From Dehalococcoidia bacterium (GTDB lineage: Bacteria > Chloroflexota > Dehalococcoidia > Lucifugimonadales > CATOSD01), in contig CBDCJA010000002.1 of the NCBI GenBank assembly GCA_965217705.1, positions 1,738,016 through 1,802,015 of the forward strand: DNA of 64,000 nt, in the 5' to 3' direction. Below are positions 5,244-63,485 of this stretch, piece by piece (position 1 is the stretch's first letter; every line of letters starts with the position of its first letter). Under the pieces are notes generated by a model, which worked only from the letters and a program-made list of their open reading frames with translations, was not told where the DNA came from and did no database searches. The translations under genes and the position numbers were made by a program.

Positions 5244-5653
5244 GGGGCGTCCTCGGTCAGCCTGGCCTCGGCGTCCTCGAAGATCGCTGTCAACGATCTG
5301 GCGTTGTCTATTCCGCGCCGAACCAGATACTCGGGGAAGTTCTCTTCGTAGAAGTTGATATGGAGTTGCTCGATCGTCGACAGCTTGTCCACGTTTGGGC
5401 CATAATCGTCGGCTATGCTGAGCAGACGGTCAGCGTTCTTGCGGATGTGGTAGTGGGAAAAATGGTCCCAGCCATTCACTTCCGCAACGGCCTTGAGGTA
5501 GTGCGCCACCGCGCCCCAAGCCTTCTCCGACGCTTGGAGCAGGTCTCCCTTCTCGAACTCCTCCTCGGCCTGCCGTAGGAAGATTGCGCTGATTTCTTTG
5601 TGCCTTGCGGTAGTAGCCATAGCTTCCCCCAGTAGCCCCTCCGTGAACCCCAA
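5240..5653 (-). CDS. PaREP1-like (HEPN-superfamily) protein
   Basis: 137 aa. EKGDLLQASEKAWGAVAHYLKAVA ... SHYHIRKNADRL ... LHINFYE matches the PaREP1 signature (KGD..QASEK.WGA...K..A...SH...LH.NFYE) as I recall it. Confidence 0.65.
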   Translation of the reverse strand: MGFTEGLLGEAMATTARHKEISAIFLRQAEEEFEKGDLLQASEKAWGAVAHYLKAVAEVNGWDHFSHYHIRKNADRLLSIADDYGPNVDKLSTIEQLHINFYEENFPEYLVRRGIDNARSLTAIFEDAEARLTEDAP

Positions 5654-5734
5654 TCTATCGTGCTCTCGGGGCCAGCGTCAAGCGAACCTTGGCCAATGTG
5701 TTCGCCTCCGTACATCCAGGGGGCCTTGCATCCC

Positions 5735-7351
5735 TTACCCTATCGACAGCTCGTCGTCGTTGTACATGATCTGGCCGCCCACCACGGTGGCCGCCACCTC
5801 GATCTGGCCGATGTCCTTCGGCGCTTCGGCGAACGGGTCCTGATTCAGCACCACGAGGTCGCCCAGCTTGCCAAGCTCCAGGCTGCCCTTCACGTCCTCC
5901 TCGAACGCGCCCCGCGCCGCGTTGACCGTCATCGTCTCTATGGCCTGCCGCACGGATATTCGCTCCGGGTCGTTCAGCACCTCGCCCGAGCTGGTCACGC
6001 GGGCCGCGGCGCTCTGTATGCAGAAGAGCGGACTGACCGGCGTCACCGGGCAGTCGGAGTGCAGCAGCGGCTTGATGCCGGCCTGAACCGCCGAGCCTAC
6101 CGGATCCAGGTTGCGCACGCGGTCGGGTCCCAGGAACCGGTCACGGTGCCGGTCGCCCCAGAAGTAGACGTGGTTGGCGAAGAAGTCGGGAATTACCCCA
6201 AGCTCCCGCATCTTGTCGATGTGCTCGGGGTGGCACACCTGGCAGTGCTCGATGCGGAAGCGGTGGTCGGCCTTGGGGATGGCCCGCAGTGCATTCTCGT
6301 AGGCTATCAGCGTCGAGTCTATCGCGGCGTCGCCGTTCGCGTGGGTCGCGATCTGGTAGCCCCGCTCGTGCAGCGTCATCACCATCTCGTTCAGCTCTTC
6401 CTGCTCGTAGATAAGCCAGCCCTTCTGGCTGTCGTCGCAGAAGTACGGCTCGCGCAACGCCGCCGTTATACCCTGTATCGAGCCGTCGGACACTATCTTG
6501 CACCCGGCGACCCGAACCCACTCGTCGCCGAAACCGGACTGCAGGGCGAAGTCCAGCTCCTTGAGCAGCGCCCACTGTATGAACATGTTAACCCTGAACT
6601 TGAGGAATCCCTCGCGCCTGGCCTGCTGGTAGGTCTTCAGGATGTCCACGCCACGACCGCGGCCCACGCCGGCGTCGTGTATGGTTGTAACCCCCTGGCG
6701 CAGGTACTCGTCCTGGGCCATGGTGAAGCCCTTGCGAATCTCCTGCTCGTCGTAGGTGCGCACGATCTCCTGCACGGCGGTCTGGGCCGTTTCGTACAAC
6801 ATGCCGTCGGGTTCGGGACTGCCCGGGAAGCGCCCTATGAGTCCGCCCGACGGGTCGCGGGTCTCGGCGTGGATGTTGGCCATCTCCAGAGCGCGGCTGT
6901 TGGCCGCCAGCATGTGGCCGGAGTTGTGCACTATCATGATGGGGTGCTCGGTGGACACGTCATCCAGGTCGTTGCGGTTGGGATGCCGCATGTCCTCGAG
7001 GCCGGTGTCGTCGTAGCCGCGTCCGCGCACCCAGTCGCCCAGCGGGGTCACGGCCGCCCGCTCGCGCAGTCGTTCCACTATGTCGCCTATGTTGCGGTTC
7101 GGTGGCGTCCTGACGTCGACCTCGAGCAGGCTGGTACCGAAGCCCACCATGTGGTTGTGCGGCTCGATGAAGCCCGGGAGCACCGCCCTGCCCGCCGCGT
7201 CGATGACCGTGGTTCCGGAGGTGCGCCCCGCCAGCACGTCGGAGTTGGCGCCAAGCGCGACGAGTCTGCCGTCCTTCACGCCCACGGCCTCAAACACGCT
7301 GCCGGCGCTGTCCATAGTCTCGACTCTGGCGTTGACAACTATCAGGTCCAT
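5735..7351 (-). CDS. amidohydrolase (YtcJ-like metal-dependent hydrolase)
   Basis: 538 aa. N-terminal IVVNARV.TMD...GFIEPHNH metal-binding motif. HANGDAAID, EHCQ and HSD motifs. Paralogous to 1-769 and 42604-44214. Confidence 0.9.
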   Translation of the reverse strand: MDLIVVNARVETMDSAGSVFEAVGVKDGRLVALGANSDVLAGRTSGTTVIDAAGRAVLPGFIEPHNHMVGFGTSLLEVDVRTPPNRNIGDIVERLRERAAVTPLGDWVRGRGYDDTGLEDMRHPNRNDLDDVSTEHPIMIVHNSGHMLAANSRALEMANIHAETRDPSGGLIGRFPGSPEPDGMLYETAQTAVQEIVRTYDEQEIRKGFTMAQDEYLRQGVTTIHDAGVGRGRGVDILKTYQQARREGFLKFRVNMFIQWALLKELDFALQSGFGDEWVRVAGCKIVSDGSIQGITAALREPYFCDDSQKGWLIYEQEELNEMVMTLHERGYQIATHANGDAAIDSTLIAYENALRAIPKADHRFRIEHCQVCHPEHIDKMRELGVIPDFFANHVYFWGDRHRDRFLGPDRVRNLDPVGSAVQAGIKPLLHSDCPVTPVSPLFCIQSAAARVTSSGEVLNDPERISVRQAIETMTVNAARGAFEEDVKGSLELGKLGDLVVLNQDPFAEAPKDIGQIEVAATVVGGQIMYNDDELSIG

Positions 7352-14811: not shown

Positions 14812-15004
14812 ACGATCCGCCCGAATGCGGACGCGGACGCCGCCCGCGCTCGTCTCGGACTGCTTTCCGGGGGCCTCCTCGATGCTCCAACACCAAACAG
14901 GCTAGCCGTCACACGTCGACAACTAGCCCGAAACTGGCCTTTCATGCTAGCAGAAGCGGCCAGTCAGGTCAAGCAAGTCGTAGTTGTTTTCCGCGGGGAC
15001 GGTT

Positions 15005-15030
15005 CCGCCACCTGCCATGGCAGGTGGCGG
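15005..15030 (-). terminator. perfect palindromic hairpin just downstream of larC
   Basis: ccgccacctgc catg gcaggtggcgg gives an 11-bp stem and 4-nt loop, 22 nt after the larC stop. The U-tract is weak. Confidence 0.35.
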
Positions 15031-15051
15031 AGCGGCGAGTCGACAGGTCGC

Positions 15052-16239
15052 TTACAGCAGGTTGGATTCGGCCTGGCGCTGTGTCTCGCGGTACACGTGC
15101 TGCAGCGGCAAGCCGCGCTCCAGCGCCACGCGTCGGCAGTCGTCGAACTCGGGAGCAACGGATACGGTGCGCCCGTCCAGGCGCTTGACCTTGACGCGCA
15201 TGATGCCGAACTCGGTTTCGACGCTGACCACTTCGCGCTCTACTTCGTATCGCCTGAGTGGTCGCACGCGGACGCCCAGCGTCGAAGTCTCGGCTACCAT
15301 CGCGCGGAGGGCGTCCGCCTCGGCATCCCTTGGAACGATGGCGCTCAGCATTGTCCCGGGGCGGTTCTTCTTCATCTGTATGGGCGTGAACCAGACGTCC
15401 CTCGCTCCGAGCGCGAAGAGCCGCTCCTGCGCGTATGCGAGCATCTCGCCGCTCATGTCGTCGATGTTCGTCTCCAGAAGCGTAACTCCCTCGGAGTATG
15501 CCGCCCCGGTCTCCTCGCCGAGCCAGAGGCCCAGCGCGTTCGGATACTGCTCCGGGTCTCGCGAGCCAAGCCCGTAGCCCACGCGCGTCAGCGCCATTTC
15601 GGGCTGCCGGAACTCCGCGAGCGTCGTTAGTATGGCCGCCCCCGTTGGCGTCACCATCTCCCCCGTCCGGCGGGCGTTGCGAGGCGCGGGCACCACGGGC
15701 GTGTTGGACATGGCGAACAGGGCAGCCGTTGCGGGCGACGGCACTGGCAACAGGCCGTGTGCGCTGTCGATTACCCCGGAGCCGGTGGGCAGCGGCGAGC
15801 AGTAGACGCGGTCCACGCCGAGCAGGTGCAACCCTGCCACGGCACCCACAACGTCGACGAGCGTGTCCAGCTCGCCGAGCTCGTGCAGTCGCGTGCTCTC
15901 CGCGGCCGTGCCGTGCACGCGCGACTCCGCCTCGCCGAGCCTGTTGAAGACGGCGCACGCGCGGTCGACGACCTCCCTGGGCAAGTCCGAGGCGCGGGTG
16001 ATCCGTATGAAGTCTTGCCAGTGGCGGGGGCGCCTGGCCTCGTCGGTCAGCTCGACTGTGACGAGCGTTCCGTTCACTCCGCGCCGGCTGGCACGGCCCA
16101 CGTCCAGCGCGAACCCCTCCGCGTCGAGCCTGGCGAGCTGCGCCTCGAGGTCGGCGGGTCGCACGCCGCAATCGACGAGCGCGCCGAGGATCATGTCCCC
16201 GCTCGCGCCGCCTATGGAATCGAAGTACGCGACGCTCAA
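15052..16239 (-). CDS. larC: nickel insertion protein LarC (UPF0272 family)
   Basis: 395 aa. N-terminal YFDSIGGASGDMILGALVD is the LarC family signature. 4-nt overlap with radA. Confidence 0.85.
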   Translation of the reverse strand: MSVAYFDSIGGASGDMILGALVDCGVRPADLEAQLARLDAEGFALDVGRASRRGVNGTLVTVELTDEARRPRHWQDFIRITRASDLPREVVDRACAVFNRLGEAESRVHGTAAESTRLHELGELDTLVDVVGAVAGLHLLGVDRVYCSPLPTGSGVIDSAHGLLPVPSPATAALFAMSNTPVVPAPRNARRTGEMVTPTGAAILTTLAEFRQPEMALTRVGYGLGSRDPEQYPNALGLWLGEETGAAYSEGVTLLETNIDDMSGEMLAYAQERLFALGARDVWFTPIQMKKNRPGTMLSAIVPRDAEADALRAMVAETSTLGVRVRPLRRYEVEREVVSVETEFGIMRVKVKRLDGRTVSVAPEFDDCRRVALERGLPLQHVYRETQRQAESNLL

Positions 16240-17666
16240 CGCTGACTGCCGAATCCGGCACCGGCCGGCTGCGGCCTTACCTGTGCCCGCTCCTGGGGTG
16301 GGAGCGCAAGCCGCAGTGCCTCCGCCAGCGTTCGAACCTGGCTCACGGCTGGCCCGCCGGGAGCGCGGGGGCGTTCGTCATCGCCCGGGCCGCCTGGCCC
16401 TATGCAGGGTCCGAGACCTAGGCGGGTTACCTCTTGCGCGCGCCGCTCGAGCTGGGACACCGCCCTCACCTCGCCGGTCAGGCCGAGTTCGCCCACGGCC
16501 GCGATTCCGGGGGCTATGGGCTGGTTCTTCAGGCTGGATGCTATGGCGAGGGCCACGCCCAGGTCACCGGCGGGCTCGCTGAGACGAACGCCTCCCGCGA
16601 CGTTGACGACGATGTCCTGTCCGGCGAGGGCGACGCCGGCGTGGCGGCTCATCACGGCGCACACCAGAAGCAACCGATTGAAGTCGATGCCGGTCGCCAC
16701 GCGCCTCGGCTGGGGGAGCATCGAGGGCATGGTCAACGCCTGCACCTCCACGAGCATGGGCCGGCTGCCCTTCATCGTCGCCACGATAACCGAGCCGACG
16801 GCGCCGTCGGTGCGCCCGGCGAGAAACGTGCGGGAAGGATCTCTTACCTCTTTCAGGCCCTCGGCTGCCATGTCGAACACGCAGATCTCGTTGGTGGAGC
16901 CGAAGCGGTTCTTGGTGCTCCTCAGCAGACGCCAAGCGCCGTTGGCGTCGCCCTCCATGTAGAGCACAACGTCGACCAGGTGCTCGAGCAGCCTGGGGCC
17001 GGCGACGTCGCCCTCCTTGGTCACGTGGCCGCTCAGGAACGCGGGCGTGCCGGTAGCCTTGACCCACTCCATCAGCCTCTGGGCGCACTCGCGAATCTGG
17101 GCCACGCTGCCCGGGGCGGCAGTGAGGCTGTCGTCGTGCAGTGTCTGGATGGAGTCGACCACGACCAAGGCAGGCCTATGGGCGTCAAGCCGCGCGAGCA
17201 CTGCGGAGAGGTTGGTCTCTGGCAACAGGAACAGGCCGCGCCCGTCGATTCCGAGCCGGTCGGCGCGCATCTTCACCTGCGGCGCCGACTCTTCTCCCGA
17301 CACGTACAGGGTCTGACCGTGCGAGGCCGAAACGTCGGCCGCCAACTGGAGCAGCAGGGTGGACTTGCCTATGCCCGGCTCACCGTACAGCAGCGCGAGC
17401 GAGCCTGGAACGACGCCGCCGCCGAGCACGCGGTTGAACTCGTCAAGAGAGAGCTCGATGCGGGGCAGCTCCCTGGTGGAGACCTGGGACAACTCGCGCG
17501 CGGGCGTCGAGGGGATGTCGGCCCTGACGGCCGCGACACGATCCGCTACCGCGACCTCGAAGAGCGTGTTCCATTCAGAGCACGCGGGGCACCGGCCTTC
17601 CCACTTGGGCGTCTCGTTGCCGCAGCTATCGCATACGAAGGCGGACTTTAGTCTGGCCCTGGGCAT
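16236..17666 (-). CDS. radA: DNA repair protein RadA/Sms
   Basis: ATG at 17666. N-terminal zinc finger FVCDSCGNETPKWEGRCPAC, Walker A GEPGIGKST, KNRFG motif and a Lon-like C-terminus. Confidence 0.93.
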   Translation of the reverse strand: MPRARLKSAFVCDSCGNETPKWEGRCPACSEWNTLFEVAVADRVAAVRADIPSTPARELSQVSTRELPRIELSLDEFNRVLGGGVVPGSLALLYGEPGIGKSTLLLQLAADVSASHGQTLYVSGEESAPQVKMRADRLGIDGRGLFLLPETNLSAVLARLDAHRPALVVVDSIQTLHDDSLTAAPGSVAQIRECAQRLMEWVKATGTPAFLSGHVTKEGDVAGPRLLEHLVDVVLYMEGDANGAWRLLRSTKNRFGSTNEICVFDMAAEGLKEVRDPSRTFLAGRTDGAVGSVIVATMKGSRPMLVEVQALTMPSMLPQPRRVATGIDFNRLLLVCAVMSRHAGVALAGQDIVVNVAGGVRLSEPAGDLGVALAIASSLKNQPIAPGIAAVGELGLTGEVRAVSQLERRAQEVTRLGLGPCIGPGGPGDDERPRAPGGPAVSQVRTLAEALRLALPPQERAQVRPQPAGAGFGSQR

Positions 17667-17744
17667 GATCAGTGGCCTCGCAGGCGACGCGCAGGCGCGA
17701 CTACACCGCACACGGGAGCGCACCCGGAGTTAGTCGGCCCGCGT

Positions 17745-20237
<2,493 letters not shown>

Positions 20238-54304: not shown

Positions 54305-54441
54305 GACTCTCCTCTCTGTGTGAATCTATGTGCTATTCGGTGCGTGAGAGCGCCTCAGAGCGTATCGGAAACCAGGTAAGCCGTGGTGAGCGGCTCACCG
54401 TCCAGGAGTATGGGGTAGGCGTTCAGCGCGGTTTCGTCTAA

Positions 54442-55290
54442 GAGGGTGTGTGAGAAGTTCAAATTAGGTTGGTGCTAAGCGTCGGAGCATTAGATGAATC
54501 ATAGCTATGTGGATCCAGGCCTCCGTTGTCTCGGACAGAGCTTCGTAGTCCTTGCTCAGCCGACGGCACCTGCTGAGCCACGCGAATGTCCGTTCAACCA
54601 CCCATCTTCGCGGCAGCACCTGAAAGTGGTGGCTGTCCCTGGGGCGCTTGACAATCTCGAGCGCCCAGCCTGTCAGGGCCCAGACCCACTCGATCAGCTT
54701 TCCAGCATAGCCAGCATCGGCCCAGACCAACCTCATGCGGGGAAACCGCCCTGTCAATTTATCGATGACCAGCTTCGCTCCATCTCTATCCTGGATATTG
54801 GCAGGATGCACCACCACCGCCAGCAGCAACCCCATGGTATCTACAATGATGTGTCGCTTTCGACCGTTGACCTTCTTGCCAGCATCATAGCCACGAGGCC
54901 CCCTTTTTCCGTCGTCTTAACAGACTGGCTGTCTATGATGGCCGCGCTAGGTGTCGGGTTGCTGCCTTCGGCCATCCGAACTTTGGGCCGCAGGGCCTCA
55001 TGGACTCGTTCCCATGTACCATCCTGTCTCCATTCCCGAAAATACCACCACACGGTGCCCCAAGGTGGGAGGTCATGCGGCATGGCTCGCCACGTGCAGC
55101 CGTTGCGCAGAACGTACACAATGCCGTTGACGACCTCCCGTAGGTCTACAGTACGTGGCCTTCCCCCGGTCTTGGCTGATGGGAGTAGGGAAGCCAGAAC
55201 ATCCCACTGTTCGTCGGTCAGGTCGCTGGGGTATGGTTTGCGTTTCATGCCTCCATTCTAATATATATACAAGACTTCTCACACACCCTC
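54442..55290 (-). mobile_element. IS5-family (IS427-group-like) insertion sequence, copy A, 849 bp, TAA target
   Basis: IRs GAGGGTGTGTGAGAAGT (54442-) and its reverse complement ending at 55290. Flanked by TAA (54439-54441) and TAA (55291-55293). Confidence 0.85.
54464..55248 (-). CDS. IS5-family transposase, orfA/orfB with probable -1 frameshift
   Basis: orfA is 54841-55248 ([10 protein letters not shown]...). orfB frame continues ...[17 protein letters not shown]...DAGY...ERTF.WL. Slippery GAAAAAGGGGG on the coding strand at 54900-54910. Confidence 0.85.
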
Positions 55291-55293
55291 TAA

Positions 55294-56152
55294 GAGCCTG
55301 TTTACGATCTATTCAGGATTAGCGCAGTGAACGCGAGCACCACCATTTGCAGGCTGGTATTGAGTTTTCCTTCGCAGTTCTTCCAGAGCCGACGGCGCTT
55401 CTCCAGCCAGGCGAAAGACCGCTCCACGACCCATCTCTTCGGCATCACCACGAAGGTGTGCAGTTTGTTGCGCTTCACGACTTCCACCGTGGCTCCCAAC
55501 CGGCTTTTCACCGCATCGGCAAAGGGCTTCCCGGTGTAACCCCCATCCACCAGCACGTTCTGCACCTGACTGAGGCCATCCCGACGCCGGTCAAACATCG
55601 CCAGGGCCCCAGCCCGATCTGTGACGTTGGCCGTGGTTATGTGGATCGCGTGAGGCAACCCCTCCGTGTCCACCGCGATGTGACGCTTGATTCCGGACAC
55701 CTTCTTGCCCGCGTCATAGCCCTTGCTCCCGGCGCTATCCGTGTTCTTAACGCTTTGGGAGTCCACGATACAGAAGCTGGTCCGCTCTTTCCGTCCATTG
55801 CTTTGCCGGGCCTCGCCAACCCATTTTTTAAGACCTGCTCCAGAATGGTGTCCTCATCCGGGCCGGACCGCTCGCTCCATTGCCGGAAATACTTGTAGCA
55901 GGTGTGCCAATCGGGGAAGTCGGCAGGCAGCATTCGCCACTGGCAGCCGCTTTTCAGGAGGTACAGCACCCCGCAGAAAACATCGTACAGGTCCACGGTG
56001 CGGGGCTTGGTCCGGCGTCGAGCCGACTCCAACGTGGGAAGAATCCGGGCGAATTGCTCCCGGCTGATGTCGCTGGGGTAAGAATGAGACATGATTACCC
56101 TGCCTTAGTATTAGTCTCAACTCAACATACCACAGAGATTGTAAACAGGCTC
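55294..56152 (-). mobile_element. IS5-family (IS427/IS1031-group-like) insertion sequence, copy B, 859 bp, TAA target
   Basis: IRs GAGCCTGTTTACGATCT (55294-) and the reverse complement of agattgtaaacaggctc (ends 56152). Flanked by TAA (55291-55293) and TAA (56153-56155). Confidence 0.85.
55302..56092 (-). CDS. IS5-family transposase in two overlapping frames
   Basis: orfA is 55637-56092 (YPSDISREQF...CQWRMLP). orfB is 55302-55766 (DSQSVKNT...[20 protein letters not shown]...DGGY...ERSFAWL). Confidence 0.85.
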
Positions 56153-56473: not shown

Positions 56474-58306
56474 TCACCGCACTGGCACGACCGGCAGCAC
56501 TACGTGGGAGGGCCGGTCCGCGTCGTGGTAAACGGTGTTGCGCGCGACCTCGGTGCGCCTGCTCAGTCCCAGCGGCTCGCCGGTGTTGGGGTTAACGTCC
56601 AGCCGGGGGAAGTTGCTGCTGGCGACGTCCACGCGGATGCGGTGGCCCCTGGCGAAGAGGTTGCTGGTGGGGTACAGCTCGACGGTGAACTCGTACACCG
56701 TGCCCGGCTCCATTAGCTGTGCCCGCTCGAACGAGTTGCGGTAGCGGGCGCGTATCACGCCGTCCGTGATGTTCATGTCGAAGCCGTGAGGGTAGTCGGG
56801 GCTGGGCGGGTACACGTCCACGAGCTTGGCCGTGAAGTCGGTGTCGACGCACGACGAGGAGGCCCAGAGCTTCGCGACGACCGGGCCGGTTACCTCCACC
56901 GCCTCCTCGAGCGGCGGCGTCTGGAACGTGAGCACGTCGTGGCGGGAGGCCAGGGGCAGGTACGGCTCGCGCGAGCCGTAGAAGCGTGGCTCTTCTTGCT
57001 GGTGGAACGCGCCACCCTCCATGATGTCGGCGCCGGAGGAGATGTTGCCTCCGATGGTGGGCACCGGGTTGTTGGGGTCGAACAGGTACTCGCTGGGCCG
57101 CGAACCGGCGCGGGGCGCCTGGGCAGACAGCGCGCCGCCGGCGTGCAGGTAGAACGCGGTGTCGCTGGCGCGGGCGAGCGGCCAGTCCTGCTCGTCTCGC
57201 CAGCGGCCGCCGTGGTTCAGGCGGCCGTCGGCGTTTTTGCGGCCGTCGCCGCCACCCATGACGAACAGCTTCACCGGCGCGTCGCGCCCAACGCCGTTGT
57301 CCATGTCCTTCAGCCAGCGGTCGAACCAGCGCAGCCGCATGTGGTTGTAGTCGTCGGCCAGGCTGCCCGACACCACCGACAGCGGCCCGAAGTCCACGTC
57401 GCCGGAGTAGCTCACGTCGTGCGCGCCGTGGGTCCACGGCCCCAGCACCATGCGAATGGGGCCATTCTTAGTAGGAGCAAGCCCCGTGTAGTTGCGGGTG
57501 GTCGTGCGGGTGTATGGGTCGTACCAGCTTCCCAGGTGAAGCTGGGGGATGTCGGCGTACTGGTCGAAGTACAGCTCGTTGCAGATGCCTATCTGCTGCC
57601 AGTACTCGCCGAAGTCGGCCTGCGTCCACATGTCGAATACGTAGTCCTCGTAGTCGGGCGTCCAGCGCAGGGGGGACTGGCCCTTCTTCCAGGGCATTCG
57701 CTTGAACCACTCGCGAAGGTCTTCGGCCTCCAGCGCGGCCTTGACGGTGGGGTCAGCGAGCGCCTCTTTGCTGTTGCGCGCGTGGGTGAAGGCCCAGCAG
57801 ACCTGGCGCAGCTCCAGGGTGCCGCTGTTGCGGCAGGAGTTGTCGTAGGCGTTGGTGAAGCCGCCACAGTCCATGAACGTGCAGGCCAGGTTGGGCGGGT
57901 TGGTCGCGGCCATCGCGGCCTGGGTGTGGGCGCCGTAGGAGATGCCGAAGGTGCCGACGCGGCCGTTGGACCAGGGCTGGTTGCCGATCCACTCCAGGGT
58001 ATCGTAGCCGTCCTGTGGGTCGTTGAGGTACTTTACGAAGGAGCCTTCGGACTTGAACCTGCCGCGGTTGTCCTGGAAGATGACGACGTAGCCCCGGCTG
58101 CCGAAGTACCGGGCGGCGGCGCGATTGCGCTGCGTCTCCTTGTTGTAGGGCGTCCGCTCCATCACGGTGGGGAATCTGCCCTCGACCGGCTTGCCGTTCC
58201 TTGCGGGGAAGTACAGGTCGGTGGCCAGGCGCACGCCATCGCGCAGCGTGACCATGACGTCGCTCTTAAGTTGGACTTCGTACTCGGGCTGGGACTGTTG
58301 GGTCAT
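56474..58306 (-). CDS. CocE/NonD-family hydrolase (X-Pro dipeptidyl-peptidase S15 family)
   Basis: 610 aa from ATG 58306. VMV.LRDGVRLATDLYFP, ERTPYNK and GISYGA nucleophile elbow. C-terminal beta-sandwich (PTSN.F..GHRIRVD..SSNFPR). Confidence 0.88.
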   Translation of the reverse strand: MTQQSQPEYEVQLKSDVMVTLRDGVRLATDLYFPARNGKPVEGRFPTVMERTPYNKETQRNRAAARYFGSRGYVVIFQDNRGRFKSEGSFVKYLNDPQDGYDTLEWIGNQPWSNGRVGTFGISYGAHTQAAMAATNPPNLACTFMDCGGFTNAYDNSCRNSGTLELRQVCWAFTHARNSKEALADPTVKAALEAEDLREWFKRMPWKKGQSPLRWTPDYEDYVFDMWTQADFGEYWQQIGICNELYFDQYADIPQLHLGSWYDPYTRTTTRNYTGLAPTKNGPIRMVLGPWTHGAHDVSYSGDVDFGPLSVVSGSLADDYNHMRLRWFDRWLKDMDNGVGRDAPVKLFVMGGGDGRKNADGRLNHGGRWRDEQDWPLARASDTAFYLHAGGALSAQAPRAGSRPSEYLFDPNNPVPTIGGNISSGADIMEGGAFHQQEEPRFYGSREPYLPLASRHDVLTFQTPPLEEAVEVTGPVVAKLWASSSCVDTDFTAKLVDVYPPSPDYPHGFDMNITDGVIRARYRNSFERAQLMEPGTVYEFTVELYPTSNLFARGHRIRVDVASSNFPRLDVNPNTGEPLGLSRRTEVARNTVYHDADRPSHVVLPVVPVR

Positions 58307-58482
58307 CCGCGCGACTCTCCGGCCTGCTTTAACGTGACGGTCATCGGGCTGCCGGGCGACTGGCGCTGCGATTATATTGGGGCGGGTGGCGGGCGTCAAC
58401 AAGAGGTGGTATGTGTAGTTGACTGCCATGGGATCTTTCCGAACCATTTAATCTCGCTGGCAGTTAGAAACGTTATAATGGT

Positions 58483-59436
58483 GTGAAGACCATGCGACAC
58501 CAGCCCAACAATCCCGGTCAGTACTTCCCAGTGATTCCGATTGGGAGGCCAAGCGGTGAGATTGAGAACCGAGGCGCACGACGCAAGTTCTGGGTGACTT
58601 TGGGAGACGATGGGAGCGAGTGGTTGCTGAAGTTCCCTCGGCCGGACACTGGCGAACACTGGGCCGAAAAGGTCGCGGCGGAAATTGGAAGATTGTTAAA
58701 TATCCAGACTGCCGTGGTCGAACTGGCGAGGGTTGGGGATGAACTAGCAACAATTTGCCTATCGTTCTTGACCGATAAAGGGGCGTCCCACTATTATAGA
58801 GTTCCTTACCCTGGGCGTCTGCATGGGTCCGAATTTTTGGGTATGACCGTCCTTGACTATGACCCCCGTGTTGTTTGGTCCAATCGCGCTCACAATGTCA
58901 AGACCATAATCAATGCGATTGTAGAAGCGGGTAGTACAAGCAAGATTCCCAATTGGGAGAAACTGTTGGGAGATTTGGCTTCGTTCGCATTGCTGGACGC
59001 TCTGATTGGCAACACCGACAGGCATCACGACAATTGGACGTTGTTGTACAGCTTGAGCGATGGCAACCTCCGGATGCGGGCCGCGCCGTCTTACGACCAC
59101 GCCTCTTCGCTAGGACGCGAGTTGACGGACAAGCGCCGCGAACGATTTCTGTCCTCAAAAGGCGGAGTTCTTAGCTACTTGAAGAAAGGTAGAGGCGGCG
59201 TATTTCTCACCGCCAATCGACGAGCACCGTCCCCACTCAGACTGGCGCAGTTACTTTGCCGATGGAATCGAGCACTGGCTAGCAACTGGTGCCGCCGACT
59301 CCACTCCGTTTCGGACGCCGATTTTCGAGCCGTAATCAATAGAGTCCCTCCTGAGTTCATGACCGAATCAGCCAGAGAATTCGCCTTCCAAGTGGTTACA
59401 ACGAGCAAAGCCGAACTGTTGTGGAGCATCAGATGA
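58483..59436 (+). CDS. HipA-homologous Ser/Thr kinase, core kinase domain only (HipT-like size)
   Basis: 317 aa (GTG 58483, or ATG 58492). Catalytic loop LIGNTDRHHDNW. No N-terminal HipA subdomain. Lower GC than neighbours. TATAAT at 58474-58479. Confidence 0.75.
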   Translation: MKTMRHQPNNPGQYFPVIPIGRPSGEIENRGARRKFWVTLGDDGSEWLLKFPRPDTGEHWAEKVAAEIGRLLNIQTAVVELARVGDELATICLSFLTDKGASHYYRVPYPGRLHGSEFLGMTVLDYDPRVVWSNRAHNVKTIINAIVEAGSTSKIPNWEKLLGDLASFALLDALIGNTDRHHDNWTLLYSLSDGNLRMRAAPSYDHASSLGRELTDKRRERFLSSKGGVLSYLKKGRGGVFLTANRRAPSPLRLAQLLCRWNRALASNWCRRLHSVSDADFRAVINRVPPEFMTESAREFAFQVVTTSKAELLWSIR

Positions 59437-60209
59437 ATATCTTGTATCTCGCTTGGCAAGACCCGGGCAGCCGCAAGTGGTACCCAGTGGGGAGACTTGT
59501 CCGTCACGAGGTCGGGCACGACGACCACAAGTACGAATTCGGGTACGTCCGGGGCGCGGTACAGGCGCAGCGAGAGGCGGGATTCTTCATGGCACCCGGA
59601 TTCGCGGAATTTGGCCGTGCCTACACGGCGCCCGTTATTTTCCCCGCTTTCCGCAATCGAATTATGAATCTGAGTCGGCCCGATCGTCCGGAGTATCTGG
59701 CGTTGCTCGGCATGAATCCCGATAGTTGGGACGTGGTAACAGAGCTTTCGCTTTCAGGCGGCCGCGTTCGATCAGACAGCTTCGAGACATTCCCAGCGAT
59801 TACGCCCGACGAGTCAGGCCACTTCGCTACGCGCTTTATCCTGCACGGCCTGCGTTACACAAACCTCGACTCAGTTCAGCGTTCCGAATTGCTTGAACCT
59901 GGAGAGTCGCTAGAGTTCGCCTTTGAGTTAAATAACCCCGTAGCAACGCACTCGATAATCGTCAAGACGACTGACCACTACGTGGTGGGCTGGTTGCCGC
60001 ATTATCTGCTCGCCGGGATGCACCAAGACAATGCGTGGATGGTAGACGACGTTGAGGCAACGGTGGCGCAGGTGAATCGTGATGCGCCGCTGAGCCACCG
60101 GCTGCTGGTGGACTTCAAGGGCAGGCTGCCGGTGGGGTTCAACCCTATGCGGGATCTGCCGGAGTACCAACCCATCACTGCCGTAGATGCGCCGATAGCC
60201 GCCCCCTAG
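59433..60209 (+). CDS. HipS-like (HipA N-subdomain) + HIRAN-like domain fusion protein; putative antitoxin/sensor
   Basis: ATGA overlap with the kinase gene. N-terminal [19 protein letters not shown]...[22 protein letters not shown] resembles the HipA N-subdomain. C-terminal HGLRYTN...[13 protein letters not shown]...HSIIVKT.D..VVGWLP.YL is HIRAN-like. Confidence 0.55.
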
Positions 60210-61843
60210 TACCAGGTGGGCTGGTACTCGCCCCACTCCTCCCGGAGCACGCCCATCATCTCGCCCAGCGTGGCGTAGGCTCTCACCGCCTCGAGAATGT
60301 AGGGCATGAGGTTGGCGTCGCCGGAGGCGGCGTCGCGGAGGCGCCGGAGCGCGACCGACGCCGCCTCGGCGTCCCGCTCGCGCCGAACGCGGTTGAGCCG
60401 CTCCAGGTGGCGGCGCTCGCCCTTCTCGTCCACGCGCAGCAGCGGAATGTCCAGCGCCTCGTCGCCGGTGTACTCGTTGACGCCAACCACCACGCGCTCA
60501 TTGCGCTCCAGCTCGCGCTGGAAATCGGACGCGGCGTCCGCTATCTCGCGCACGAAGAAGCCGTCGTCCACGGCGGCCCTCACGCCTCCCGCCTCCTCGA
60601 TGCGGCGGAAGTAGTCGTAGGCCCCGGTCTCGAGCCGGTCCGTGAGCCACTCCAGGTAGTGGCTGCCGCCCAGGGGGTCTACGGTGTCCGTGACGCCCGT
60701 CTCGTGCGCGATGATCTGCTGGGTGCGCAGGGCGAGGCGAGCGGCGCTCTCGCTGGGCAACGCCCAGGCCTCGTCCATCGAGTTCGTGTGCAGGGACTGC
60801 GTGCCGCTCAGGACCGCCGCCAGGGCCTGGATGGCCACCCTGACGATGTTGTTCTCCGGCTGTTCGGAGGTCAGCGTCGCGCCCGCCGTTTGCGCGTGGG
60901 TGCGCAGCCACCACGAGCGTTCCTTCTTGGCTCCGAACCGCTCTCGCATCTCGCGGGCCCATATCCGGCGCGCCGCGCGGAACTTTGCGATCTCCTCGAA
61001 GAAGTCCTGGTGAACGTTGAAGAAGAAGCTGAGGCGGGGGGCGAAGTCGTCCACGTCCATCCCGCGCTCCACGCACGCCCGGACGTATTCGAACCCGTCG
61101 GCCAGCGTGAACGCCAGCTCCTGTACGGCGGTAGAACCGGCCTCCCGTATGTGGTAGCCGCTGATGCTGATGGGATTCCAGCGCGGCAGATTCTCGGAGG
61201 CGTATTCGATGGTGTCCACCACCAGCCGCATTGAGGGTTCCACCGGGAAGATGTACTCGTTCTGGGCGGTGTACTCCTTGAGGATGTCGTTCTGAATGGT
61301 GCCGCCCAGCGCCGCGGCGGGGATGCCGCGCTTTTCGGCTGCGGCGATGTACATGGCCCAGAGGATGGCCGCGGGCGCGTTGATGGTCATCGAGGTGGTG
61401 ACCTGGTCCATAGGTATGCCGTCGAAGAGCACCTCCATGTCGGCGAGGGAGGAGACGGCCACGCCGCACTTGCCGAACTCGCCCCGAGCGGGCGGGTCGT
61501 CGGTGTCGTAGCCATACAGAGTGGGCATGTCGAATGCGACACTCAGCCCCGACTGTCCCTGCTCGAGCAGGTACTTGAACCGCTGGTTGGTATCCTCGGC
61601 GGTCCCGAATCCGGCGAACATGCGCATGGTCCACAGCCTTCCGCGGTAGCCGGTGGCGTGGACGCCGCGCAGGAAGGGATAGCGGCCGGGAACATCCGGC
61701 TCGTCCGGCTCGCGCTCGCGGCTGTCCGCCGTGTAGGCGCGCTCGACGGGGATGCCCGATACGGTGGCGAATCGCTCTTTGCGTTCGGCGGGCGGCGCCG
61801 GGGGCGTGCTGGCGCTCTTGGGGTTGTCGGCTTCACCGGCCAT
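60206..61843 (-). CDS. methylmalonyl-CoA mutase family, large catalytic (N-terminal TIM-barrel) subunit
   Basis: 545 aa. YPFLRGVH...[25 protein letters not shown] and [22 protein letters not shown] motifs. No B12-binding domain in this ORF. Confidence 0.9.
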
Positions 61844-61969
61844 TGGGGACGCTCCTCGCTTGGCTTGGGGAAGGCAGTTTGGCGTTATTCTATCACGGGC
61901 CGGCGTGATGCGACGGGAGGTGGCGGGTGGTACGGAGGGCCGAGATTGCCTTACCAGCCGGGAGGCTTA

Positions 61970-62838
61970 GAGGGTGTCTAAGAAGTGGTCACATAATACC
62001 TGTACACAGGAGTGGGGGATGATGTAAACCATACCCATGAACAGACAAGCCTACCCCAGCGATCTCAGTGACACCGAGTGGCGACTGCTAGAGCCTCTGT
62101 TGCCCGCTCCTAAACCGGGAGGCCGTCCGGTCAAGTATCCTCGCCGGGAGGTGGTGAACGCCATCATGTACGTACTTCGGAGCGGGTGTCCGTGGCGGAT
62201 GCTTCCACACGACCTTCCCCCTTGGCGCACGGCGTTTCACTACTTCCGCACCTGGCGAAAGGACGGAACCTGGGAGAGGGTCCATCAAGCCCTGCGCGAG
62301 AGGGTACGGACAGCCGATGGACGACAGACTTCTCCCAGCGCGGCTATCATAGACAGCCAGAGCGTGAAGACGACCGAAAAAGGGGGCCTCGTGGCTATGA
62401 TGCTGGCAAGAAGGTCAACGGTCGAAAGCGACATATCATTGTAGATACCATGGGGTTGCTGCTGGCGGTGGTGGTGCATCCTGCCAATATCCAGGATAGG
62501 GATGGTGCGAAGCTGGTCATCGATAAATTGGCAGGAAGGTTTCCACGCCTGCAATTGATCTGGGCTGATGCTGGTTACGCGGGCCAGTTGGTTGATTGGG
62601 CCATGTGCTTGTCGGGTTGGGCGCTGGAGATTGTGAGGCGTCCGAGAAGCAGCCATCAGTTCGAGGTGTTGCCGCGAAGATGGGTGGTTGAGAGAACATT
62701 TGCATGGCTGGGACGCTGCCGTCGGCTGAGCAAGGACTATGAAGAACTGCCGGAGACCACCGAGGCGTGGATCTACAGTGCCATGACGAGACTGATGCTG
62801 AAACGGTTAGCACGCACACCCACCTTTTAGACACCCTC
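61970..62838 (+). mobile_element. IS5-family (IS427-group-like) insertion sequence, copy C, 869 bp, TTA/TAA target
   Basis: IRs GAGGGTGTCTAAGAAGT (61970-) and the reverse complement ending at 62838. Flanked by TTA (61967-61969) and TTA (62839-62841). Related to copy A. Confidence 0.85.
62037..62830 (+). CDS. IS5-family transposase, orfA/orfB with probable -1 frameshift
   Basis: orfA is 62037-62444. orfB frame runs to 62830. Slippery GAAAAAGGGGG at 62376-62386. Same motifs as copy A. Confidence 0.85.
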
Positions 62839-63485
62839 TTAGTGATGACACCAACGTCGTCCGTCAGCGCGTCGGGGAACTGGCTGCGCCGCAGGTGGCT
62901 TCTCCAGAGGCGCTTGACGTAGGTCGCAGCGTCGGCCAGCCGGCTGGGACTGCGGGTCTTGGCGTCTGGGTTCACCAGCGTCACGCGAAGCCCCAAGTCG
63001 TTGCGAACATAGCGCATCGCGCCTGCGAAATCGGCGTCGTTCGACACGACGACCGCCTGCTCGTAGTCCCTGTTGAAGCCGTCCACCAAAAGGCGCGTCA
63101 CAAGGTTCACGTCCGATCCTTTCTCTTCGGATTCCCTGACCAGGACGTGGGTGGGCAGACCCGGAACAGGCTCGGCCAGCGGGCGGCGCCTGAAGCCGGA
63201 GCGAAACACGCCGTAGTAGGCTTCGTAGCCAGGCAAAGTCGCCAGCGCTCTCAAGTACGCCTGTTGCCGCTGAGGTTGATAAAGATTGCCCGAGCGCGCC
63301 TCTAGCCGCGCGGTGAAGTAACAGACCTTTTGGATAGTGTCATCCGGGAATAGAGTCTCGGCAAGCTTACGCAGGTCAAGCCATCTGAAGGGGGTATCCT
63401 TGAGGGCGCGGTAGTAGAGATTGAATCCATCTACATAGACGTTGGTGAGCAATAGATGTTCCCTTACAAAAACAGAGACCGCCAC
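62839..63485 (-). CDS. NYN/LabA-like (DUF88) domain protein, 3' end clipped by IS copy C
   Basis: VYVDGFNLYY ... KGSDV ... VVVSNDADF NYN motifs. The native last codons (KPPGW-stop) lie on the other side of the IS at 61951-61969. Confidence 0.7.

Follow-up and report, generated by a model that had tools for sequence, protein, structure and literature searches.

HipA-family kinases are textbook persistence toxins. This work concerns a two-gene cassette, hipI-hipN, in a 64,000-nucleotide stretch of a Dehalococcoidia genome (contig CBDCJA010000002.1; the whole stretch is called the window below), in which the gene for a HipA-family core Ser/Thr kinase (hipI, 58492..59436, + strand) is followed by one for a protein with a predicted HipS-like N-terminal domain, followed at the C-terminal end by a HIRAN fold (hipN, 59433..60209, + strand). 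The closest described system is hipIN, which was defined and predicted computationally by Gerdes et al., mBio 2021 (PMC8262856), who proposed that HIRAN senses phage DNA ends and frees the kinase. The kinase of hipIN is likewise a short core kinase (279–321 amino acids) that carries the Hip motifs and lacks N-subdomain 1; its gene likewise comes first, a HipS-like plus HIRAN protein is encoded downstream, and there is no HipB. We find no architectural difference from the present locus. A first-pass annotation of the window, made from the letters of the sequence, had described the pair as a kinase with a HipS-like/HIRAN partner and no HipB, which is the hipIN organisation, and its statement that Gerdes et al. 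had predicted bicistronic HipS-HIRAN operons was accurate (PMC8262856). The mechanism at which it arrived is also theirs: neutralisation by a HipS-like domain, DNA sensing by HIRAN, and abortive infection as the proposed outcome. Published hipIN and the present copy differ in origin and in one residue: published HipI proteins come from Actinobacteria, Firmicutes, Proteobacteria and Cyanobacteria, whereas the present copy is from Dehalococcoidia (Chloroflexota), and published HipI proteins mostly have Ser or Thr near the glycine-rich loop, whereas the present subfamily has a conserved Glu at the position of HipA Ser150.

The same arrangement is known as PDC-M03, a PADLOC phage-defence candidate described in a 2026 paper as a HipA protein plus a HIRAN protein, for which no validation was found in the literature searched. 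HipI matches the profile PDC-M03A (1.1e-61, profile positions 5–299 of 305) and HipN matches PDC-M03B (2.1e-64, positions 5–242 of 245), so that the locus, like PDC-M03, has two adjacent full-length components, here on genes that overlap by 4 nt; the copy in the window lies outside any defence island. We place the locus, as a copy carried on the chromosome, in the hipIN type of module, for which PDC-M03 is the PADLOC candidate name; this type is already catalogued computationally. NCBIfam has no model for HipI or HipN. A match to "HIRAN" in the Millman et al. preprint proved to be the surname Hirano, and was discarded.

In HipBST (E. coli O127, Legionella pneumophila), too, the HipA fold is divided between a core kinase and a HipS-fold protein of its own, and HipS contacts HipT directly at the glycine-rich loop and so neutralises it (PMC10627512). 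HipBST has a helix-turn-helix (HTH) protein, HipB, a tricistronic hipB-hipS-hipT arrangement and a stand-alone HipS of ~100 amino acids, whereas the present locus has no HipB, has the reverse gene order with the kinase first, and has its HipS-like domain fused to HIRAN. The Ser-Ile-Ser autophosphorylation motif in the glycine-rich loop of the HipBST kinase is missing from the present kinase, and sequence similarity between HipS and HipN is undetectable. HipL has the kinase, HipS-like and HIRAN parts in the same order as the present locus but in one polypeptide; here there are two open reading frames (ORFs), with a stop codon in the ATGA overlap, and close relatives are split too. PHROGs contains one family for each protein, and also a fused family, phrog_26212, of 547 positions. 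This family aligns with ORF1 (positions 108–258) and then with ORF2 (329–531), and is a phage-borne HipL-like kinase-HipS-HIRAN fusion. In Actinobacteria, genes for a deoxydinucleotide nuclease (diDNase) adjoin HipA-HIRAN pairs (NAR 2025, PMC11706625). When 684 ORFs neighbouring our loci were clustered, no conserved third gene such as diDNase was found, only lineage-specific synteny.

ORF1 matches Pfam HipA_C with 48.5 bits against a curated threshold of 30.5 (E 1.1e-12), and PHROG family phrog_8728 with 2.7e-40. Its glycine-rich, ATP-binding loop, E25-N-R-G28-A-R-R-K32-F-W34, is at residues 25–34 (58564..58593, +). Because this loop starts at residue 25, the N-subdomain of HipA, of some 125 residues, is missing from HipI, and the first-pass annotation of ORF1 as a HipA-core kinase lacking that subdomain holds. 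The catalytic loop D176-R-H-H-D-N181 (59017..59034, +) is equivalent to HipA D309...N314, the Mg-binding D202 (59095–59097, +) to HipA D332, and K47 (58630–58632, +) to HipA K181; likewise G28 and K32 correspond to HipA G153 and K157. BLASTP aligned the catalytic block with HipA residues 294–337, and the HipA reference residues were checked on the E. coli K-12 sequence (RISVAGAQEK). In an alignment of 38 relatives, G28, K32, W34, K47, D176, N181 and D202 are invariant columns, and judged by its residues HipI is a kinase with its catalytic apparatus intact. In the same alignment the position of HipA Ser150 is occupied by E25 (IE-NRGARRK against IS-VAGAQEK), which is at least 90% conserved. Since a conserved Glu stands there, autophosphorylation control at the canonical HipA serine is unlikely. 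E25 may be a built-in phosphomimic, or it may be a sign that autophosphorylation control is absent.

The two ORFs lie where the first-pass annotation had placed them, with the ATGA overlap it had described, but the start of the first is revised. As called in frame, the upstream ORF covers 58483..59436 (+) and contains LIGNTDRHHDNW; a start at GTG 58483 would extend hipI by three codons. The window and four syntenic relatives all have ATG 58492 unchanged, GTG 58483 is not kept in relatives, and a 314-amino-acid protein in the database has 100% identity to ORF1. We therefore conclude that HipI has 314 residues and not 317, and the upstream gap is then 185 nt, in place of the 176 nt given before. 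A probable −10 box, TATAAT (58474..58479, +), lies 12 nt 5′ of the ATG, which implies a very short hipI leader. This box is invariant in the same five sequences, whereas the neighbouring intergenic DNA is variable and contains indels. The start codon of hipN overlaps the stop codon of hipI in the ATGA at 59433..59436 (+), read directly from the sequence, and a GGAG Shine-Dalgarno sequence (59423–59426, +) is found 7 nt before the hipN ATG. Overlap and ribosome-binding sequence together suggest that translation of the two genes is coupled. Among 77 related loci, 27 have a kinase alignment that reaches as far as the first base of the hipN start codon.

The N-terminal domain of HipN comprises residues 1–126 (59433..59810, +) and was assigned from its predicted fold. 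The AlphaFold (AF2) model of these residues has a predicted local distance difference test score (pLDDT) of 86.1, and a Foldseek search of the Protein Data Bank (PDB) returned a single strong match, 7vkb_B, which is HipS of the Legionella HipBST complex, HipS(Lp), with a template-modelling (TM) score of 0.72 by target and 0.60 by query. Sequence comparisons did not extend this result. Pfam Couple_hipA has no match in HipN, a profile of 43 HipN sequences gave only chance matches to PDB sequences, and hhalign of the N-domain profile against HipA residues 1–110 was not significant (E 0.37). The N-domain profile matched 1279 clusters at 50% identity, of which the best 150 are all HipN-like, and within these best 150 a reach to HipS or HipA is not shown. 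The HipS-like nature of the domain is thus supported by its predicted fold and not by sequence statistics; the earlier suggestion that the start of ORF2 resembles the missing HipA subdomain stands as regards the fold (7vkb_B), but no significant sequence match accompanies it. One locus (L148, 1309–2130) encodes, downstream of a HipI-like kinase, a 273-amino-acid protein with a HipS-like N-domain, 67% identical over 100 residues to the HipN of L053, and a different C-terminal half, which matched none of seven HipN query sequences and may be an alternative sensor domain.

The C-terminal HIRAN fold occupies residues 127–258 (59811..60209, +) and carries the motifs GLRY (59847–59858, +), NNP (59931–59939, +) and GWL (residues 186–188). 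In the model of the whole of HipN (pLDDT 85.5, predicted TM score 0.82), the top 18 Foldseek matches are HIRAN structures, with probabilities of 0.90–1.00 (the first 16 being 1.00). They include HLTF (4s0n, 4xzg and 5bnh), lp_0118 (3k2y) and Rad5 (6l8n). On this HipN taken singly, Pfam HIRAN scores 15.9 bits, below its threshold of 24.7 (E 0.011), while it is detected in 39 of 43 members of the HipN family; this agrees with the first-pass assignment of the end of ORF2 to HIRAN. HipN has 170 homologues, of 50–89% identity, that span its full length. The fold is like that of HLTF and Rad5 HIRAN (TM 0.54–0.66 by target), and GLRY and NNP are present. A weak hhalign alignment with HLTF HIRAN (E 0.052) pairs NNP with N90-N91-P92 and GWL with G109-H110-L111. 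We take HLTF Tyr93 and Asp94 to hold the 3′-OH end, and R71/Y72, N90/N91, Y93 and D94 to be the residues of the 3′-end pocket. Neither Tyr93/Asp94 nor Phe142 of HLTF appears to have a conserved counterpart in HipN, and DNA binding by HipN is a prediction. His173, by contrast, is nearly invariant, and specific to the HipN family.

We then examined how the two genes are distributed. Scanning a single genome for each species gave 213 loci, of which 80 were fetched; the 213 occur in Dehalococcoidia/SAR202, Vicinamibacterales, Latescibacterota, Proteobacteria, Verrucomicrobiota, Cyanobacteria and Planctomycetota. A pattern scan of IMG/VR found no relatives. The kinase gene is immediately upstream of hipN in 77 of the 80 loci retrieved by HipN. 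Of the 78 metagenome loci that were retrieved by the kinase and could be assessed, 75 have hipN immediately downstream of it. The only locus that has enough downstream DNA and yet no HipN match is L129, in which an IS110-type transposase directly follows a C-terminally altered kinase at the place where HipN is expected (295–2632). The reverse situation, an intact HipN beside a truncated or absent kinase, occurs in L005, L008, L035, L070 and L083, usually beside an insertion sequence (IS): in L083 (8093–10753) an IS takes the place of the kinase and HipN is intact, and in L005 (5345–6004) a kinase lacking its first ~80 residues adjoins an IS. This asymmetry is compatible with a harmful kinase, and is suggestive only. 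Two further loci have unusual kinase regions. In L017, from Latescibacterota, a kinase-like segment (~5534–6001) lies in frame within an apparent open frame of 1485 codons, and in L016 only kinase residues 14–104 are recognisable, within an ORF of 376 codons; both may be artefacts, or else variants that have diverged or become fused.

The composition of the cassette is unlike that of its surroundings. Its guanine-plus-cytosine (GC) content is 0.52–0.58 against 0.64–0.72 in the flanks, a lower value as had been noted from sampled stretches, and GC at third codon positions (GC3) is 0.60 in hipI and 0.69 in hipN against 0.91–0.92 in the flanks. Cassette GC is below that of the flanks in 73 of 75 loci, with a mean difference of 6 points. 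Distant homologous pairs lie beside the integrase on temperate Vibrio Vinavirales elements and on the C. difficile phage phiCDKH02, and others are carried on eight plasmids. One metagenomic copy, L086, is in a defence island with AbiEii, type I restriction-modification, GmrSD and AAA_15 genes. Among the 117 nearest neighbours in 31 diverse loci defence genes are a minority and most genes are metabolic. In another syntenic group (L082–L085), two class Ib aminoacyl-tRNA synthetase paralogues (Pfam tRNA-synt_1b; ~14850–18270), one of them a 772-residue fusion, are encoded 4–8 kb downstream of the cassette. This is curious as HipT targets TrpS, and it may be coincidence.

The cassette is found next to the mutase gene, at the same site, in five species-level Dehalococcoidia genomes; L001–L004 keep the peptidase flank too, and in L005 the upstream side has been replaced. 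Two other clades hold it at two other fixed sites. Flanking proteins are 93–98% identical among the same-site genomes, against 56–65% for the kinases compared with each other (one pair reaches 89%) and 70–84% for HipN compared with the HipN of the window, and the contrast is repeated in the other two clades. Synonymous divergence (dS) is 0.36–0.48 in the flanks. For the window against L001 it is 1.44 in the kinase and 0.44 in hipN; against L002, 0.32 and 1.11; and against L003, 2.3 and 1.08. The ratio of nonsynonymous to synonymous divergence (dN/dS) is 0.10–0.21 throughout for both genes, and 0.12–0.19 for hipI, so both genes are, from these sequence comparisons, under purifying selection. 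The high divergence of the proteins might have been due to positive selection, a reading that we rejected, dN/dS being 0.1–0.2; because it is dS and not dN/dS that is inflated, allele replacement is indicated. Sliding nucleotide identity, with which dS agrees, places an approximate recombination breakpoint inside hipN at 59660..59720 (+): L002 is 85–98% identical to the window over 58414–59660 and then falls to 62–75%, whereas L001 is 57–77% identical upstream of the breakpoint and 91–94% identical over 59660–60200. On the basis of dS and sliding identity, the cassette is a functional mosaic whose alleles are swapped by recombination at a stable locus. In sequence terms hipI and hipN behave together as an exchangeable, compositionally foreign cassette and are almost never separated. 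The first-pass annotation had held that its proposal would fail for a housekeeping pair conserved across related genomes with native GC content. The pair is indeed conserved at the same site in relatives, but since its GC is non-native and its turnover faster than that of the flanks it is not a housekeeping locus.

By analogy with HipBST, HipN would neutralise the HipI kinase through its HipS-like domain. The inhibition would be lifted by a signal that the HIRAN half detects, for which DNA ends or single-stranded DNA, arising from phage replication or DNA damage, are the most plausible candidates. Once free, the kinase would, like HipA and HipT, phosphorylate a translation factor that the cell cannot do without, most likely an aminoacyl-tRNA synthetase, and growth would stop, giving abortive infection or dormancy. 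We consider it probable, with due reserve, that the locus is such a hipIN module, in which a HipS-fold/HIRAN partner curbs the kinase and a kinase freed by a signal arrests growth. A toxin-antitoxin or abortive-infection mechanism is plausible, and we infer it from these comparisons. The PDC-M03 matches, the near-obligate linkage, the persistence of HipN where the kinase is lost, the carriage by phages and plasmids, the atypical GC and the exchange of alleles are all in line with a role in toxin-antitoxin or defence. Several observations weigh against this interpretation. The HipS-like assignment comes from one Foldseek match, with E 0.02 and a probability of 1.00. The top 50 Foldseek matches of the N-domain model include neither E. 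coli HipS nor the HipA N-domains, and sequence profiles give no similarity of this domain to HipS or to the HipA N-domain. HLTF Y93 and D94 fall, in the hhalign alignment (E 0.052), on V170 and A171 of HipN, which vary within the family. The loci from which HipN without kinase was counted had been chosen for a good HipN match, and some kinases that look split may owe this to errors in long-read assembly. The cassette has, in the window and in three clades of Dehalococcoidia, a stable position among metabolic genes and lies in no defence island. Lastly, no experimental study of HipI, HipN, HipL or PDC-M03 was found in the literature searched.

The same observations could be read in other ways. 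HipN may be a sensor switch and not a labile antitoxin, combining a HipS-like clamp with a divergent HIRAN pocket in a stably resident, diversifying sensor. The pocket, in which His173 would stand for the Tyr-Asp of HLTF, would then read a nucleic-acid cue other than the canonical 3′-OH end, and the cassette would have been kept for long at fixed sites in Dehalococcoidia while its alleles were shuffled by recombination. We regard this as possible, though doubtful; if it is true, the locus would be an immune or stress sensor acting on a kinase, and the first kinase effector gated directly by a DNA-structure sensor. Another proposal is a plain addiction module with no phage sensing, in which HipN is a labile antitoxin and HIRAN replaces HipB as the autorepressor of the operon. 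The lack of an HTH gene, the tight linkage of kinase and HipN, the existence of plasmid copies and the DNA binding of HIRAN domains (PMC8262856) would all suit it, but the HIRAN domains that are known bind DNA ends or single strands and not operators (PMC8262856), the promoter region has no inverted repeat, and only the −10 box is kept upstream of hipI among close relatives, the rest having large indels. The fused HipL form also argues against differential proteolysis, and we judge such a module unlikely.

It is less likely still, in our view, that HipN provides the N-subdomain in trans, so that HipI and HipN together form an active holoenzyme, which HIRAN recruits to damaged or replicating DNA as a vertically kept regulator of stress or growth in slow growers. 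In favour of this, the homologous N-subdomain of HipA belongs to the enzyme itself and does not inhibit it (PMC10627512), purifying selection acts on both genes, and the cassette is held among metabolic genes at three fixed chromosomal sites, in 5–13 species-level genomes each. Single-chain fusions exist as well (phrog_26212; HipL), and a fused partner cannot serve as a separately degraded antitoxin. Against such an enzyme, the kinase is lost or truncated while HipN persists and almost never occurs without HipN, which fits a harmful kinase better, and foreign GC3, mosaic allele replacement and carriage by phages and plasmids are untypical of a housekeeping regulator. Finally, the foreign composition, a genome with active IS elements and the truncated kinases of some relatives might point to the functionless, decaying remnant of an old insertion, its ORFs intact by chance. 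This is highly improbable, given a dN/dS of 0.10–0.21 for both genes, invariant catalytic residues, a conserved −10 box, start codon and ATGA coupling, and 170 full-length HipN homologues.

The neighbours of the cassette are both metabolic and both on the opposite strand, and no HTH gene adjoins it, as had been reported before. Upstream is a gene for an S15/CocE-NonD-type peptidase (56474..58306, −), with a conserved promoter at 58399..58371 (−); downstream, and convergent with hipN, is one for methylmalonyl-CoA mutase (60206..61843, −). The region upstream of hipI is not conserved as coding sequence among relatives and holds no operator-like inverted repeat or palindrome. No direct repeats or att-like sites flank the cassette, and Rfam has no family in 58000–60600. 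At the hipN-mutase junction the sequence CTAG (60206–60209) holds the stop codons of both genes, leaving no room for a terminator. A 13-nt inverted repeat (60162–60174 and 60217–60229) crosses this junction because the HipN and mutase proteins both end in an EYQP-like motif. IS5-family insertion sequences of the two-ORF type (DUF4096 + DDE_Tnp_1) are found in the window at 54438–56150 and 61905–62838 and are absent from the syntenic relatives L001–L004; a copy 95% identical to one of them lies beside the truncated kinase of L008. The 3′ end of an NYN-domain gene (62520–63485, −; Pfam 3.8e-08) extends into the IS at ~62838, and two other loci, one of them L035 (3603–4295), also have NYN-domain genes among the closest neighbours of the cassette.

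Taken as a discovery, the locus is one more member of a family that is already catalogued. What is new here is the conservation of its site, the mosaic structure, the selection acting on it, the linkage counts, the carriage by phages and plasmids, and the residue features of HIRAN and of the Glu. For the HIRAN-linked branch (HipIN, HipL) no experimental test is reported in the literature searched, and the present locus is a minimal intact example of it, with two coupled genes in 1.7 kb and no catalytic residue missing. The comparative data identify the half of HipN that co-varies with the kinase, the HIRAN residues specific to the family and the natural variants that have lost the kinase, and they make it unlikely that the canonical autophosphorylation site is used in HipI. 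If the HIRAN half does gate the kinase, the module would tie the sensing of DNA structure to the shutdown of translation.

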